The notes beneath the pieces were generated by a model. That model was not told the origin of the DNA. It saw only the letters and a program-made list of their open reading frames with translations, and searched no databases. Positions 5,010 to 63,875 of a DNA stretch of 64,000 nt are shown in pieces. A program made the translations under genes and the position numbers. Where the stretch lies: positions 4,960,001 through 5,024,000 of the forward strand of contig JAWMAR010000006.1 of NCBI GenBank assembly GCA_036785375.1, read 5' to 3'. Each line of letters begins with the position of its first letter. Position 1 is the first letter of the stretch. Source of the DNA: Leucoraja ocellata (taxonomy: Eukaryota).

Positions 5010-5690
5010 TTTGTCGAAAGCAATTTATCAGGATGGTTTGGGAACAGCTCCATCCATGACCGCAAGAAATTGCAGAGAATTGTGGACGCAGCCCAGACTA
5101 TCACACAAAACAACCTCCCTTACATTGACTCCATTTACACATCACGCTGCCTCGGCAAGGCCATCAGCATGATCAAGAATGGGCCGCATCCTGGCCACTC
5201 CCTCTCCTGCCCTCTCCCATTGGGCAACAGGTATAGAAGTGTGAAAATACACACTTCCAGATTCAGGGACAGTTTCTTTCCAGCTGAAGAAGGACCACGA
5301 CCCGAAATTTCGCCAATTCCTTCTCTCCACAGATGCTGCTTCACCCGCTGAGTTTCTCCAGCATTTTTTGTCTACCTTCGATTTTTCCAGCATCTGCAGT
5401 TCTTTCTGAAAACAATTCTTTCCAGCTGTTATCAGGCAACTGAACCATCCTACCAACAACTAGAGAACAGCCCACGATCTACTATCTACCTCGTTGGAAA
5501 CCCTCGGACTATCTTTGATCGGATTTTACTGGACTTTATCTTGCACCATTACATTAATCCCTTTGTCATATGTTTGTACACTGTGGATGGCTCGATTGTA
5601 ATCATGTATTGTCTTTCTGCTGGCAGGTTAGGACATGACAAAAGTGTTTCACTACACCTCGGTAAATGTGGCAACAAACTGAACTCAAAC
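5010..5690 (+). mobile_element. Rex1/Babar LINE 3' portion, interrupted at 5284-5415
   Basis: WFGNSSIHDRKKLQRIVDAAQTI..SRCLGKA..HPGHSL..RYRSVK..RFRDSFFP is a Rex1-type ORF C-terminus; tail TTTCACTACACCTCGGTAAATGTGGCAACAAAC. Confidence 0.82.
5284..5415 (+). mobile_element. Penelope pLTR/hammerhead short insert with 13-bp TSD
   Basis: TTCTTTCCAGCTG at 5274-5286 and 5416-5428; begins with CTGAAGA (CTG shared with the TSD). Confidence 0.88.
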
Positions 5691-7295: not shown

Positions 7296-7505
7296 ACAGA
7301 AATCCCATCCCCTCATACAGAAATCCCATCCCCTCATACAGAAATCACATGCCCTCATACAGAAATCACATGCCCTCATACAGAAATCACATGCCCTGAT
7401 ACAGAAATCACATGCCCTCATACAGAAATCACATGCCCTCATACAGAAATCACATGCCCTGATACAGAAATCACATGCCCTCATACAGAAATCCCTGCCC
7501 TATCA
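7296..7505 (+). repeat. 21-bp minisatellite, 10 units (ACAGAAATCACATGCCCTCAT)
   Basis: Unit starts every 21 bp from 7296 to 7485; variants ordered A A B B C B B C B plus a diverged terminal unit. Confidence 0.97.
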
Positions 7506-7571
7506 ATTGAAGGGATGCCATTTCAGTAAGTTACACAATGGCGGGGTGAGATAATGGGCAGTCGAACCTGC

Positions 7572-7719
7572 ATAGGAAGGAACTGCAGATGCTGGTTTAC
7601 ACCGAAGATAGATACAAAATGTTGGAGTAACTCAGCAGGTCAGGCAGCATCTCTGGAGAAAAGGAATAGGTGACGTTTCAGGTCAAAACCCTTCTTCAGA
7701 CAGCATTTTATGTCTATCT
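7572..7719 (-). mobile_element. Penelope pLTR element with near-intact hammerhead (7672-7699) and short inverted end
   Basis: Minus strand CTGAAGA A GGGT-TTTG-ACCT GAAA CGTC; 7701-7719 is an inverted copy of about 7606-7624. Confidence 0.85.
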
Positions 7720-8290
7720 CACTTGTAGCTGTCATTTGCAGGAGTGGTCAGCTCATTGCAGTCCAGAAATATCACCTGCAATGATTTATTCAGCTCCCAT
7801 GTTGTGCCTCTGGTGCTAATTTTGATTTAGATTATTTTCCACAGCCCTCTCTAAAATCCAAGTTAACTTTGTCTTCCTGCCTTGACACTGTCAAGTCTTA
7901 TTTGTCTACTCAGATAAGCGTTAATTTATCCTGTTATCCTTAACCGTCCTTCCTTTCCCCAGCATTGTTGCAGTTGCCCCTGGAAACAAGGACTAAAGAG
8001 AAACTCCAAAAAAAATAAAAGCAGATTCTCTTGAGATGTGCCTGGCTTTCCACTGCGTTATTTTGAGACCAGCCGCTGGTCTCTCAATCACTCGGTTAAC
8101 ATTCCTCTCTTAATAATGGTTCCTGGAACTCCGATGTATAAGGCAACATCTCCTGTGAGTCCGGAAACATCGCATACATCATTGACACACGTCCCAAAAT
8201 GTATGTTGTGAAATTAAATTCAATTAACTTCATTTTAGAAAGACCTCTGATGTTCCGGCACGTGATTATGTAGAAATCATGCTGATTTTG

Positions 8291-11335: not shown

Positions 11336-11810
11336 TCTTGTACCAGGTGTGGACTGTCTTCACAAGGAATTCCATCTCTGCATGAACCAGATTACCAATC
11401 GTGCAGACTGCGTTCGATCCTAACCTGACTATGGATGCTGTCCGTATGGAGTTTGTACGTTCTCCCTGTGACTGGGTGGGTTTTCTGTAGGGTCACCGGT
11501 TGCTGCCTGACCTGCTGATGCTCCAGCAGTTTGTGTCCTTTTGTGTAAACCAGTATCTGCCGTTCCTTGTTTCTACAGTTTGTCCCAACCTGGTCATTTC
11601 TTCTTCTCCCGACTCTAATCAGGCAGAAGATACAGAAGCTCATAAGCATGCACCACCACTCATGAACAACTTCTTCCCCTCTGCTCTCAGGCTTTTGAAC
11701 AGTCCTGCCATAAGCTAAGATACAGCCCAATTAACCTCTGCCCCATTGCGGACATTGGACTTTGTCTCTGGAACGGCTACAATACTGATAACCATATTCT
11801 TCACTTTAGC

Positions 11811-11973
11811 TGAAGTAACTTCACTTTAACTGAAAGGCATCAGTCTGAAGAAGGGTTTTGGCCCGAAACGTTGCCTATTTCCTTCGCTCCATAGATGCTG
11901 CAGCACCCGCTGAGTTTCTCCAGCATTTTTGTGTACCTTCAATTTTCCAGCATCTGCAGTTCCTTCTTAAACA
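11811..11973 (+). mobile_element. Penelope pLTR/hammerhead insert with 15-bp TSD
   Basis: ATTCTTCACTTTAGC at 11796-11810 and 11974-11988. Confidence 0.9.
11845..11872 (+). ncRNA. Minimal hammerhead ribozyme motif, intact core
   Basis: CTGAAGA A GGGT-TTTG-GCCC GAAA CGTT. Confidence 0.68.
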
Positions 11974-12731
11974 ATTCTTCACTTTAGCATTCCCTTTGCT
12001 CTACCTATTGTACATGAGTAAGGCTTGATTGCATTAAGATATAGTATTATCTAATAGGATTGGATATCAGGCAAAACAAAGCTTTTCACTGTACCTCGGT
12101 AAACATTCCTATAATAAACTTAACCCTTAGTGCAAGATTTGTTGATACCACAGAGGGAATATTGAAAATGTCATTTATAAATCAGCTGTGGGAGGTTGCT
12201 GCTTAAAGGCAGCCCTGCAGAAACGCTACCTTCCTTGTTCAATGACTGTGCCATCCTTTCTCTAAGCTTTGTGTGCACTCCGCTCCGAGTTTTTGAGGAT
12301 TACAGTCCGTGCTTTGAAAGGGCTGTGTTCCACGTTCTGTGTTAGATGCAGCCGTAACTGACACAGGAAGTATTTAGAGAATGTGTGAGCTGGAGCACAG
12401 GGCTGAAGAAGATGATGTGACAAACAGCATACACAATATACTGTATCTGGGTTGCTTTTTAAAAAATATACTTCATGACTCACCACATTGTGATTCTGGG
12501 CAAGGCTCAAGATCAGGCGCCGACAGATCATCGAACAGTCGATCCAACTTACAGGGAGAAAGAAAGAACTTACTTTGGTTTACATCTATCACAAATTTAA
12601 GGCCTCACAGAATACTTGCAGCCAACTAAGTAATTTTCAAGAGTGGTCGTTATGACAGTGTGAGGAGCATTGTCCTGATTTTTGCACAGAAGGATCGAAC
12701 AAACCCCCAATGATGTGTCAACATATGGGGC

Positions 12732-13035: not shown

Positions 13036-14054
13036 ATGTTTTTGTTATGTTCGCGGAGGGAGAAATATTGACTGGGAAATTTTGGAAAAAAATCACATGT
13101 TCTTTATCGATGTCCCATCCAATCATAGTCATACAGCATAGAATCAAGCCCTTCAGCACACTGTTAATGCAAAATATCAAGTACCCATTGGTACTAATCC
13201 AATGCATCAGGTCTTGCACTGTAGCCTACTGTGCCTTGGCTGTTCAAATGCTTTTTCAAAGTACATTTAAAATGCTAATGGAGCACTTATACTCACCATT
13301 CTCTTGGACAGTCTGTTCCAGATATCAACCTTACTCTGGATGAAACAAATTATTCTTCTGAACCTCTTACCTTACACCTTTGCCCTCTGGATATAGACAT
13401 CCGCCAAGTTGGGCCTTAGTTTGATGTCACAACTAAAAGAGAATACCTCTGCTCTCTTTCTTCTCAAGACTCTGGAGAGGGGGCTGAAATTGCAACTTCC
13501 GTGTTAGAGTTTGGAACTGTCACCAAGCTGAGATTGACACCCAACCTGTGATGGAAAGTCATCAAAAACTTTTGATACTCGTAGTCTGAAATCAGAACAG
13601 TAAAGGTTGGAAGAACTTAGCAGGTAGGCATTTGGCCTGCAATATTGACTCTATCTCTCTTTGTAAATGTGCTGCCTGACCTGATGAATGTTTCCAGCAA
13701 TTAGGCTTTTTTTATTTCTGAGAAACCCATCCACACCACCCTGATAGGGTACAGTTATGTGAGTTTTAGTTACTAGATTAAAATGTGCACTACAGATGCA
13801 TCAGTTTGAAGAACGTAAATTCTGTAATTGAAAATTTCTGGAATTTAAAGGAAGTTTAATCTTAGTAACAGTGATCACAAAATGGTCAGATTTTTATCAG
13901 ATAGTTTACTGATGTCCTTCAGGGTACAATGTTTGCCATCCTTACTCATTCTGAACTGTACATGACTCCAGGCATTTCAATGTAGTTGATTCTTAGCTGA
14001 CTACAACAAGAACCCAATAGAAACAGGCGTAGGCCACTAGATCCCTCAAGCATA

Positions 14055-20309: not shown

Positions 20310-20651
20310 ATGAAGGAAGAAACTGCAGTTGCTGGTTTAAACCGAAGATAGACATAAAAAGCTAGAGTAACTCTGCAGGTCAGACAGCATATCTGGAGAA
20401 AAGGAATAGGTGCCATTGTGGGTCGAGAGGGTCAGATGGAAGGTCTCAACCCATTTTTTGTGTCTATCTGTGGAGGGCCAAGGAAGAAATGGAAGGCTTT
20501 AAGGCCTTCGTGGTGGGGGATGGAGGTGTAGAGTGACTGAAAGTCCATAGTCTGAAGAAGGGTCTCGACCCAAAACGTCACCTATTCCTTTTCTCCAGAG
20601 ATGGTGTCTGGCCCATTGTGTTACTCCGGAGCTTTTAATGTCTATCTTCAG
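20310..20651. mobile_element. Two opposed Penelope pLTR elements (20310-20469 minus, 20549-20651 plus)
   Basis: CTGAAGAAGGGTCTCGACCCAAAACGTC at 20552 (GAAA mutated to AAAA at a CpG). Confidence 0.82.
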
Positions 20652-20860: not shown

Positions 20861-21499
20861 AGCAGCTCAGAGGCAAGCGGATATCTTTCCATAGAGAAGC
20901 AATGGAGAAAAATGATGCAGCTATCATTGCACTCTCGTACTATGACCTGCTTGGGAATTTTAATAATTAAAAGGCAAGGCCAGAACTGATCATTCATCTG
21001 ACAAAATATATTCTTTTGAGATTGGCATAAAGAAAATCTCCTTCAAATTAGGTTGTTACGGTGGCATGACAGTATTAAGATGTATTGAACAACTAACAAG
21101 CCACAGATTCTAATCAGGCCTTACTGTGGATCAGTACGTCCCTTCATTAATTCAGATTAAATTTTTATAATAAAATATTGCATTATCAATTTTGTTGCCT
21201 GGCCATTCAAAGATAAATTTAATTATAGGGCTGGCTGTCCATTGGATCCCTGTGGATTAAATATTTCAAAATGTAATGATATCTGACATATAAAATGAAA
21301 TTGGTGCATACACTTCTTGTACTTCTCGAAGATTCTGTGTTGAAAGCTGGTGCCCGCTATGCTGAAGATTTGCAGGTTAGGAAAGAATAGCACAGAGGAT
21401 ATGAAGTAGTGATCAATTAACTGGGTTTTAGAAAACCCAATTTGTCCGCACCAAAATCTGACATCAAATGATAAATGAACAAATAATCCCCTCCAGTAA

Positions 21500-21645
21500 C
21501 ACAAGAAACTACAGGTGTTTGAATTTTGAGCAAAACCCAAAGTGCTGGAGGAACTCAGTGGGTCAGACAGAAATGGAGACTAAAGAAGGGTCCTGACCTG
21601 TAACATCATCTATCCATTTCCCTGCACAAATGCTGCCTGACCACC
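21500..21645. mobile_element. Old fold-back pLTR element
   Basis: Minus arm 21500-21570 then plus arm CTAAAGAAGGGTCCTGACC..ATGCTGCCTGACC. Confidence 0.65.
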
Positions 21646-24164: not shown

Positions 24165-24430
24165 AGGGCAGGTCTGCTTCAGGAACAGCTTCTTCCCGAG
24201 AGCCATCAGGCTATTAAACACTACAACCTCAAATAAGCTCTGAACTACATAGACCATTATTGTTATTATTGCACTATTATTGTTTATTTGTCTTTTTATG
24301 TTATATTTCATATGATATATGTATATGTGAGTATGGCAGCATCTCTGGAGATGAAGGGTTTCGCCACGAAACTCCACCTGTTCCTTTTCTTCAGAGATGC
24401 TGCCTGACCCGTTGAGTTACTCCAACATTT
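24165..24430 (+). mobile_element. Rex1 tail (24165-24330) followed by fold-back pLTR element (24335-24430)
   Basis: FRNSFFPRAIRLLN; GGCAGCATCTCTG..CAGAGATGCTGCC inverted arms. Confidence 0.72.
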
Positions 24431-24569
24431 GGGGTGGGGTGGGAGGGGGAATGATGAAGGTTTAATAATCTGGAAGAGGTCTAGATAGGATAAAATAAAT
24501 TAGAACAGAAGAGAGAGGAAAGACTGCTGGAACTGTCAGATACAGAACTTGGTGATTTCTAGAAACCTG

Positions 24570-26813: not shown

Positions 26814-27049
26814 GCCCCTGAACTCTTCCTGTCTGCTCAATCTCATTTGATGTGGCAGCCCTACAGCCGAGTGAAGGGAAGACTTCAACCAGTCACCCAG
26901 CTTTTAACACTTACTGCTGAAATATATACAGCACAATACATTCTGGTCTGATGCACATCTAAATTCCATCAGGGGTCCTGCAAGGGTTCCATTTGGATCT
27001 GCAAGGATTGGCAGCTGTAAATGTACGGTCAAAACCTAGAGAAAGACAG

Positions 27050-27195
27050 GAAAGACACAAAATGCTGGAATCTGAGGGCCCCGGCCCGAAACGTCACCAA
27101 TCCATGTTCTCCACAGATGATGCCTGACTCGTTGAGCTACTCCAGCATTGTGTGTCTTTCTTTGGTAAACCAGCATCTGCGGTTCTTTGTCTCTA
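27050..27195 (+). mobile_element. pLTR element with short inverted 5' end
   Basis: GGCCCGAAACGTCACC; degenerate 14-bp TSD at 27036-27049 and 27196-27209. Confidence 0.75.
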
Positions 27196-33575: not shown

Positions 33576-33892
33576 TGACTCATGGCTCTAAGTATGAATA
33601 TTGTGACCAAGCTTACCAACAACCCCAGACTGAATCTTAGTGCTTACAAGATCAGCGTGTGCTATTTAAAGAAGCAACGTGAGTCTTCCCAAGTAGTGAT
33701 TTGTGGTGTATTTTCATCCCTCAACCAGCACCATCAGTGATAGATATTCCAATCATTGCTTTATGTACTCTATGGCGCCCAAGCCGAGCGATTCTCTGCG
33801 TGCTGGTCCCAGAAGAAGATATGCAATCACCCATTATAATCGCTCCACTCTTTTAAACCTTTAAACCTTTAGTCCAGCAGCAAATTCTCTTT

Positions 33893-34084
33893 GTTTAGGA
33901 AGGAACTGCAGATACTGGAAAATCGAAGGTAGACAAAATTGCTGGAGAAACTCAGCGGGTGCAGCAGCATCTATGGAGCAAAGGAAATAGGCAACATTTC
34001 GGGCCGAAACCCTTCTTTAGGCCTATTTCCCTAGCTCCATATATGCTGCTGCACCCGCTGAGTTTCTCCAGCATTTTTGTCTAC
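33893..34084. mobile_element. Fold-back Penelope pLTR insertion with 15-bp TSD
   Basis: Arms 33928-33992 and 34021-34085 (61/65 complementary); TSD CAGCAAATTCTCTTT at 33878-33892 and 34085-34099. Confidence 0.92.
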
Positions 34085-34849
34085 CAGCAAATTCTCTTTA
34101 TCCTGTATCCGTACATTGTGGTTGGCTTATTTGTAATCACGTATATTCTTTCCGCTGACTGGATAACATGCAACAGAGAAGCTTTTCACTGTACCTCGGT
34201 ACACGTGACAATAATAAACTAAACTAAGCTTTGTTATTTTTGCTGTGTGGAACTAGTTGCATAGTCTGAAAAGCACCGGTGGCTATTTACAAAGCAACAC
34301 ATTAGTCCTTCAGAGGTATTAACAAAATGATTATTTACTAAGCTCTGCAGTTGAAGAATACCCAAGAGAATATACAATGTACATTAACAAATATGTTAAC
34401 TATCAGTTATTGCAAATATTTAAATTTATTCAGGAATTAGATATTTTAAGTATCTCTACCATTCACATACTGAAGATGGTGAATAATATTAAAAGGTGTA
34501 AAACAGTGCTGGAGGAGTGAGCAAGTGATGAGATAATTTACAGAACTAATAATATGGGATTTTTATAACACTGCCTACATTGTTGATGTTGTTTTTTTAT
34601 CTCAGGGATAAAGTAGGTGGGGAGGGCATTATCTTTCCTGTTGGGACGGTTCGGAACAAGGGGCATGTTGTATTTATAACAAACTTAGAACAAACCCTTT
34701 CAGCATAATTCATTGAAACACTTCTTCATACCAAGGGTAATAGAAATCTGGAACTCTATCCTCATCTCCTATCAACCCACCACTGAAAGTTCCCACGGTC
34801 AGTCAATTTAAAATTCCAGAATGGAGATTTCTGGTGTAAAGCAAAATGG

Positions 34850-37780: not shown

Positions 37781-37922
37781 NNNNNNNNNNNNNNNNNNNN
37801 NNNNNNNNNNNNNNNNNNNNNNNNNNNNNNNNNNNNNNNNNNNNNNNNNNNNNNNNNNNNNNNNNNNNNNNNNNNNNNNNNNNNNNNNNNNNNNNNNNNN
37901 NNNNNNNNNNNNNNNNNNNNNN
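37781..37922. other. Assembly gap
   Basis: Run of N. Confidence 1.
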
Positions 37923-45749: not shown

Positions 45750-45882
45750 GGCTGGAGAGATCTGCAGATGCAGATGTAGAGACCCTTGACCCTGTTTCGG
45801 GTCGAGGATCTCTGCATCTGCATCTTCTATCCAGAGATGCTGCCTGTCCTGCAGAGTTACACCAGCATTTTGTGTCTATCTT
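45750..45882 (+). mobile_element. Rearranged pLTR element containing a 27-bp hairpin
   Basis: Arms 45766-45792 and 45799-45825; pLTR tail follows. Confidence 0.75.
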
Positions 45883-58819: not shown

Positions 58820-59040
58820 GTGATGCTTCCAAGATGGCGTCCAACCCAGGCGACTATTTGTGTGCTAGCCACAGAAGCAGATCTACAATCACATATTACA
58901 ATCGCTTCACACTTTTAAATCTGTACATTGTAAATGGCTCGATTGTAATCATGTATTGTCTTCACGCTGACTGCTTAGCACACAACAAAAGCTTTACACT
59001 GTACCTCGGTACCTGTACCTGTACTACTAAAACAAAACCA
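58820..59040 (+). mobile_element. Short bipartite element: YY1-motif head plus Rex1 tail
   Basis: CAAGATGGCG at 58830; tail similar to 25280-25397. Confidence 0.55.
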
Positions 59041-61745: not shown

Positions 61746-61969
61746 NNNNNNNNNNNNNNNNNNNNNNNNNNNNNNNNNNNNNNNNNNNNNNNNNNNNNNN
61801 NNNNNNNNNNNNNNNNNNNNNNNNNNNNNNNNNNNNNNNNNNNNNNNNNNNNNNNNNNNNNNNNNNNNNNNNNNNNNNNNNNNNNNNNNNNNNNNNNNNN
61901 NNNNNNNNNNNNNNNNNNNNNNNNNNNNNNNNNNNNNNNNNNNNNNNNNNNNNNNNNNNNNNNNNNNNN
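61746..61969. other. Assembly gap
   Basis: Run of N. Confidence 1.
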
Positions 61970-63409: not shown

Positions 63410-63441
<32 letters not shown>

Positions 63442-63474
63442 ACACACATCCACGCGCGCACACACACACCCACC

Positions 63475-63522
<48 letters not shown>

Positions 63523-63565
63523 CACACACACCCACGCGCGCGCACACACACACACACACATACAC
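63410..63565. repeat. Compound (CA)n/(CG)n microsatellite
   Basis: Direct observation. Confidence 0.97.
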
Positions 63566-63875
63566 TAGGGAGGGGCAGGCAGTGTGGACTCGAATTATGG
63601 GGGGGGGGGGTTGCGGAGAGTGTCGGAGGAAAGTTCTGGAATTTTTCTTTGTAAACGCGAATCAATCTTTCAGTCAATTAATAGACTCGACGTTTGAGTC
63701 GATACCTCCCCGTCATACTCTCCCGCCCACCCCGTCACACACTCGCCCTCCCCCTTGTGCGACCCAGTCGGACTGAAGATAGTGGCGTGCAGCATTCTCT
63801 TTCAAGCTGCTGCTGCCATTATCATTGGCAACCCCCAACGCAATGTTCCACCACTCACCAGTTCCCCCAAGGCAA

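Follow-up and report, generated by a model that had tools for sequence, protein, structure and literature searches.

Insertions of endonuclease-bearing Penelope-like elements (PLEs) are described as having an inverted, 5'-truncated copy next to them and a tail of 30-40 bp at one end (PMC8557442), and tails of 30-40 bp are also described in PMC11167929. The latter source reports, in its available text, that the anole PAc protein cuts and extends both target strands, and it places the tail between two RT start sites. Among main texts outside subscription, we found no mapping of PLE inversion junctions relative to the hammerhead cut site. The fold-back insertion described here lies in a window of 64,000 nucleotides, the whole stretch of DNA that was analysed, and is a real and ordinary leftover of a very abundant Penelope-like element in a pattern that has already been described. 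As judged from its sequence, it appears to be a well preserved Penelope-like pLTR end with a head-to-head inverted partner (Table 1).

Table 1. Coordinates of the focal insertion, its hammerhead core and its flanks, in window positions.
Feature	Positions	Strand	Basis or remark
Left flank, older dispersed repeat	33772..33863	+	77% to 58834-58925
Left TSD, 15 bp	33878..33892	+	15/15 vs 34085-34099
Main copy, 128 nt, pLTR 3' end, hammerhead C3 to family long 3' end	33893..34020	-	sibling identity
One-sided tail, 35 nt, between family short and long 3' ends	33893..33927	-	not in inverted arm
Arm-pairing part of main copy, from hammerhead position 1.1 (33992)	33928..33992	-	61/65
Loop, 28 nt, minimal hammerhead core	33993..34020	-	sequence, fold, 14-copy alignment
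GUU triplet	33995-33993	-	cut predicted at 33993/33992
C15.2-to-U	33996	-	15.2-16.2 is U-G in focal copy
Helix II, 4 bp	34012-34009 with 34004-34001	-	UUCG loop
G5-to-A change	34018	-	core box reads CUAAAGA
Hammerhead C3	34020	-	numbering per PMC4209133
Head-to-head junction, helix I register	34020..34022		ambiguous by 2 nt
Inverted 5'-truncated partner, 65 nt, position 1.1 to short 3' end GTCTACC	34021..34085	+	
Right TSD	34085..34099	+	34085 common to TSD and arm end
Right flank, older dispersed repeat	34093..34224	+	7 window relatives, 72-90%

The insertion is enclosed by a target-site duplication (TSD), CAGCAAATTCTCTTT, which matches throughout and permits no extension. An exact 15-mer repeated 150-260 nt downstream is found at 6 of 63,306 window positions, four of them in one tandem repeat, one being the focal TSD and one that of the sibling at 11845; TSDs of 13, 15 and at least 10 bp accompany the copies at 5284, 11845 and 36108, respectively. 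Re-alignment of 33928-33992 with 34021-34085 returned the 61 pairing positions out of 65 that the first-pass annotation had reported for its 65-bp inverted arms, and its perfect 15-bp TSD likewise stands. The minus strand of the insert has a predicted fold of -134.6 kcal/mol (z -15.5), a stability equalled in 0/200 shuffles, and the main copy shares 92% identity with the single copy 11845-11974 over 130 nt.

The repeat family has 32 profile matches in the window, and contigs of four related organisms (four of 24 listed runs) were compared with its sibling copy 11760-12060, not with the focal locus; in these reference coordinates C3 falls at 11845 and position 1.1 at 11873. The repeats of the host resemble those of a cartilaginous fish. 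Coverage of the family amounted to 73,210-109,436 contigs per run. The joints, inserted-letter rows and loose ends discussed here are the 15 of 93, 12 of 665 and 24 of 1203, respectively, that were listed, and their counts are to be read as at least the values given. Among the listed loose ends, two 3' modes about 35 nt apart, at 11938-11940 and 11973, recur in 4/4 runs, and these modes bound the 35-nt tail of the focal insertion. The long 3' end of the main copy coincides with the mode at 11973 in 4/4 runs and the outer end of the partner arm corresponds to reference 11937, 1-3 nt off the modes 11938-11940, such that both outer ends of the insert match the two family 3' ends, the long one in the main copy and the short one in the arm. 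An assembly artefact or a rearrangement after insertion would have to produce this placement of the outer ends together with an exact TSD, arms that differ at 4/65 positions and five more fold-backs in the same window; we consider it highly improbable, even with the contig comparison made on a sibling copy and no orthologous empty site seen.

The inverted 5'-truncated copy, the 35-nt tail at one end and the 15-bp TSD, all of them Penelope traits, are present at the focal copy, and partial head-to-tail tandems, a further such trait, are present at the level of the family (not of the focal copy), with joints of 11940 to 11841 and of 11974 to 11840 in 4/4 runs. Like the insertions described in PMC8557442 and the Pen2a element of Adineta (PMC3846280), the unit has a head-to-head partner, a tail at one end and one TSD around the whole; unlike them, its halves are pLTR-end fragments without an ORF, and its junction lies in the helix I register with no long palindrome. 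The Penelope-type reading of the first-pass annotation holds on structure, as does its remark that inverted partial copies are a known trait of these elements, which the available texts of the same two sources bear out. No RT or GIY-YIG domain was found with Pfam in 46 reading frames (42 around eight copies and 4 elsewhere), and the family is probably Penelope-like on structural grounds. The resemblance to Poseidon PAc of Anolis carolinensis is structural too, taking in two RT start sites that bound the tail, a hammerhead just upstream, probable extension of both target strands and uncut RNA as the main substrate; the available text of PMC11167929 does not map inversion junctions. L1 twin priming, as described in PMC11702581, is similar in its clean TSD, its inner end-joining and an inverted segment that here, too, would be primed from the second strand. 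Overlaps in L1 inversions are at most about 10 nt in that source, whereas 65 nt are duplicated in the focal insertion, and because of this difference two RNA templates or the copying of a cDNA are suggested. Non-LTR retrozymes (10.64898/2026.07.22.740005) are, like the focal insert, PLE-derived and non-coding with a type I hammerhead, but the units described there are arranged head-to-tail with a full hammerhead each; with one core, a head-to-head arrangement and no two or more tandem complete-hammerhead units, the focal insert was rejected as one of them.

The loop between the arms reads CTAAAGA-A-GGGT-TTCG-GCCC-GAAA-TG-TT on the minus strand, with an extra A after A9 and the GAAA box in place. 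It had been taken as exactly the hammerhead core, and the layout is indeed that of a minimal core; G5, a base important in the hammerhead core, is mutated, however, and the motif is a decayed one. Whereas the sibling copies conform to the CUGANGA and GAAA boxes and the NUH triplet, the focal copy departs from them with its CUAAAGA. Like the metazoan PLE minimal hammerheads described in PMC4209133, it has a type I core with an extra base between 9 and 10.1, a G10.1-C11.1 pair, a palindromic 15.2-16.2 without a loop 3 and a short helix I, of 2 bp as in D. virilis; unlike them, the focal copy has a helix II of 4 bp rather than 6-8, the G5-to-A change, a GUU triplet and, in place of helix I, an artificial 65-bp arm. 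Alignment pair 24-35 is present in 13/14 rows, and over the 14 aligned copies an 8-pair hammerhead structure is paired in 83.9% of cells, as against 11-52% in slid controls. Covariation in helices I, II and III of these copies was not above shuffled, 407/500 shuffles reaching the score. Rfam covariance models gave no match at the gathering score, and none of the eight matches at E up to 5 was a hammerhead; psbJ-4 and MIR1507, which fall on the hairpin below the gathering score, reflect the long stem and were set aside. In the minimum-energy fold of the focal copy the long stem closes at the helix I pair and the core stays open. The changed G5 and a helix III without a loop led us to reject a functional ribozyme here.

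Helix I of a type I hammerhead arises from pairing between the base 5' of C3 and the base that follows the triplet. The plus arm starts at GCCTATTTCC, directly 3' of the GTT triplet, and in this the first-pass annotation was correct in placing the start just 3' of the cleavage triplet (here GUU rather than GUC). Its placing of the end of the minus copy at the first C of the box is a possible parse and not a unique one. Positions 34021-34022 are readable either as arm or as main copy positions 2.1-2.2 with one transition, the two bases 5' of C3 being GT in the siblings as against GC in the focal copy; compared with the siblings, the main copy may therefore run 2 nt past C3 with one T-to-C difference. 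Any join in the helix I register places the arm start directly after the triplet and leaves the core as the loop, with no need of cleavage; the coincidence with the cut site, though exact, most likely has this simpler geometric explanation, and the proposal that the junction is a sign of cleavage, in which the register had been overlooked, is not supported in general. Across the 14 aligned copies the 2-bp helix I is kept in 85.7% of cells, with its G-C pair in 12/14 rows and its 2.1/1.1 pair as UA in six, UG in five, CG in one and other combinations in two. The sole CG belongs to the focal copy, and C at position 2.1 is found in 1/13 other aligned copies, 48140, which is old and of a different subfamily. 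Joining in the helix I register also restores a hammerhead whose helix I is long and perfect, a feature that single copies do not have.

These observations can be accommodated without any special role for either the register or the ribozyme. Two cDNAs may have been truncated independently and joined bluntly, the main copy ending near C3 as most copies do and the arm ending at 1.1 by chance, and the junction as written indeed has 0 nt of microhomology when set against sibling sequence. Other starts at C3 exist, at 5284 (defined by its TSD) and at 21581, and the joint 11845/11903 is found in 2/4 runs. The calculated chance of at least one exact cut-site start in the window is 0.06-0.11, for 5-7 fold-backs and 60-80 starts, and 0.17-0.30 within 3 nt. 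Two exact ends are needed at once on this account, and the exact hit still comes only about once in ten such windows; we regard coincidence as possible, though not likely.

An inverted arm that scores above all 400 null segments is present in 6/22 core-bearing window copies, the focal one included; this count leaves out 20427- (1/400 null segments as high) and 45823+. The five further head-to-head fold-backs lie at 21499-21642, 24335-24432, 13580-13710, 27047-27191 and 7569-7720. Measured from the cut, the arm starts at 0 in the focal copy and at about +12 in 24350, +13 in 21581, +25 in 13626, +43 in 27075 and +47 in 7699, with the starts of old copies uncertain by a few bases. One of the six significant window fold-backs thus has an arm beginning at the cut, and one of the 32 family matches, the focal arm, starts at position 1.1. 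An outer arm end near model position 93-97, at the short 3' site, is common to the focal copy, 7699-, 27075+ and the marginal 20427-, the lengths of whose arms differ widely. The arms of 21581 and 24350 end away from the short 3' end, the first carrying the tail and the second stopping early, and the 13626 fold-back is ill-defined. In the fold-back at 21499-21642, the tail sits on the arm that has no core, and the core also reads CTAAAGA.

The contig data bear on where templates end. The commonest listed 5' loose end is 11843, or C3 minus 2, in 4/4 runs (at least 227, 248, 193 and 257 contigs); the mode thus lies 30 nt before the cut, which means that the usual template was uncut. Most copies in the data seen cross the cut and end at the 5' boundary of helix I, and these partial data point away from the integration of cleaved RNA. 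A joint between C3 and 1.1 is absent among the contig rows listed for the four organisms. Between 11872 and 11873, the summed depth rises in the four runs by only 0.9-1.6%, a net value that contig ends confound, and GUC accounts for only 10-22% of the depth at the triplet. A cut-site junction is, in the data seen, not typical of the family. The suggestion that the insertion is a fossil of a self-cleaved RNA end consequently lacks support as a general rule, given 1/6 arms and 1/32 matches, and may hold for the focal event only.

For that event, the second cDNA could have run off the 5'-OH at 1.1 of the 3' cleavage product and been joined to a cDNA of uncut RNA, an account we consider unlikely. 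It would explain the arm that starts exactly at 1.1, a fixed outer arm end fits a second cDNA that was primed separately, and a minor peak at the cut is compatible with the contig rows listed; in the anole, moreover, the PLE hammerhead cleaves with the protein present (PMC11167929). Against it stand the scarcity of such starts among arms and family matches, the small net rise in depth at 1.1 (weak evidence), the modal 5' end 30 nt upstream, the low share of GUC and the predicted folds of two single copies, each taken together with its own upstream sequence, in which helix I does not form. The available texts are also unfavourable, since cleavage was dispensable in the anole system and the RNA-seq reads showed no starts or ends at the cut (PMC11167929), and minimal hammerhead monomers were without cleavage in vitro (PMC4209133). 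That ribozyme-cleaved RNA sometimes serves as second template more generally, with a minority of fold-backs and single copies beginning at 1.1, is in our judgement distinctly unlikely.

Junctions along the pLTR are uneven and appear to cluster at microhomologies, and because of this seeming clustering an even spread, which had been offered as the outcome that would refute a role for cleavage, is the wrong null. The longest microhomology class, CCTTC/GAAGG at +12/+13, also gives the most stable predicted cDNA fold-back and matches the two window arms at +12/+13. Eight of the 12 listed inserted-letter rows are of the kind 11884-11885/11853, for which the orientation is not given; on an opposite-strand reading they lie no more than 1 nt from the CCTTC/GAAGG pairing. 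The listed opposite-strand joints are 11842/11935 and, in two runs, the 11845/11903 joint noted above. For the row 11877/11842, decoding gives a joint at the outer two pairs of the helix I register, and no exact decoding was obtained for five 11885/11853 rows, 11879/11844 and 11885/11855.

In the best model, which we are about equally ready to hold and to doubt, both target strands would prime and the two cDNA ends would be joined through 1-2 nt of helix I pairing, with no cleavage. An endonuclease would nick the two target strands 15 bp apart. One strand would prime at the distal RT start site, tail included, and uncut RNA would be copied through the core as far as the usual family 5' end at C3 minus 2. 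A further cDNA would be primed by the other strand from the proximal start site, and the two cDNA 3' ends would then be joined by microhomology. The pairing used at the focal join would be the DNA image of the 2-bp helix I of the family, and the T-to-C difference could represent a source variant, mismatch repair or a later mutation. We infer the two-ended priming, the annealing step and this single difference. Two RNAs or the copying of a cDNA would be needed, because 65 nt are duplicated.

Several observations argue for a join of this kind. The focal copy is one transition away from the modal 5' end, which lies at C3 minus 2 in 4/4 runs, helix I is largely kept among the aligned copies, C at 2.1 also occurs in copy 48140, and row 11877/11842 decodes in the same register. 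The arms of the other fold-backs start at various distances from the cut, and the listed rows near CCTTC/GAAGG, if opposite-strand, fit joining by microhomology. Arms of very different length with an outer end in common are what priming at a fixed site predicts, and the anole protein is reported to extend both strands and to use unprocessed RNA (PMC11167929). Other points weigh on the opposite side. With focal-subfamily DNA the modal end gives one true pair and an A-C mismatch, folding of the cDNA as DNA lists no pairing of its 3' base in the helix I register, C at 2.1 is rare among the other copies, and covariation is no better than shuffled. The exact joint is not among the listed rows, and the register lacks that support as a hot spot. 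As regards the two-ended priming, microhomology fails to separate it from snap-back of a single cDNA, and the arms of 21581, 24350 and 13626 do not conform to a common outer end. Joining in the helix I register is compatible with a cleaved template, and one copy cannot separate the two.

Formation of the arm from a single strand, by snap-back of the completed cDNA or by an antisense RNA that primes itself, followed by resolution of the hairpin at the tail boundary by the endonuclease, would likewise dispense with RNA cleavage. Self-priming has been proposed for Adineta Penelopes (PMC3846280) and tail formation by endonuclease resolution has also been proposed (PMC8557442), and a palindromic class of junctions does exist in the family: in run X8, at least 72 contigs with an inverted-arm consensus have loose ends at 11855, at the core palindrome GTTTCG/CGAAAC. 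This account needs an additional step to end the arm at the short 3' end, however, whereas two-ended priming provides that end without one, and folding predictions gave no stable hairpin in the helix I register. We consider self-priming improbable for the focal insertion.

As a single insertion in a known Penelope pattern, from a family found in 73,000-109,000 contigs per run, the focal copy carries little weight of its own. The family is nonetheless of a size that could decide whether integration of cleaved RNA ever occurs. If cleaved second templates prove true, they would constitute a countable genomic record of germ-line cutting by PLE hammerheads, with products used for integration. More useful as leads are the pile-up of 5' ends and the constancy of the outer arm end. 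By eye, about 10/22 window copies have their 5' ends gathered at the 5' boundary of helix I, at reference 11840-11846, as in copies 3907-, 5284+, 7699-, 20552+, 21581+, 27075+, 36108+ and 60071-. The consensus letter beside the modal 5' end 11843 is G in 3/4 runs, within otherwise A-rich flanks and at an agreement of only about 0.34; possible origins are a base templated by the cap, the end of a spliced exon or short arms in register. The TCAGTCT at the family 5' end presumably fits the initiator consensus, and its position after a pyrimidine tract also fits a 3' splice site. In D. virilis, an intron end maps to the helix I 5' end (PMC4209133).

The TSD lies near the seam between two kinds of older repeat. 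When 33864-34106 without the insert is set against 58834-59012, 43 nt are absent from the sibling host repeat, and because these missing 43 nt include the TSD, 58834-59012 gives no confirmation of the pre-insertion site. The right-flank repeat we take to be LINE-tail-like. At the sibling copy, 34 nt separate the 15-bp TSD from C3 within 11796-11844, and part of this stretch repeats adjacent target sequence, in the manner of locally templated filler.

Family patterns found 0 loci each in viral, metagenome and prokaryote genome contig collections; shorter patterns found 3 and 19 loci, which we set aside as chance, 21/22 being without a family match and locus L001 holding little beyond the search word. 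Elsewhere in the window, a head-to-head pair of copies separated by 125 nt occupies 20312-20651, the minus one with a possible short arm of its own. At 45775-45830, a core-less copy is preceded by a separate hairpin-like stretch that holds an inverted piece of the core, and this is a more complex rearrangement. N runs occupy 37781-37922 and 61746-61969, a 21-nt tandem array lies at 7296-7493 and a CA/CG-rich microsatellite at 63410-63567.
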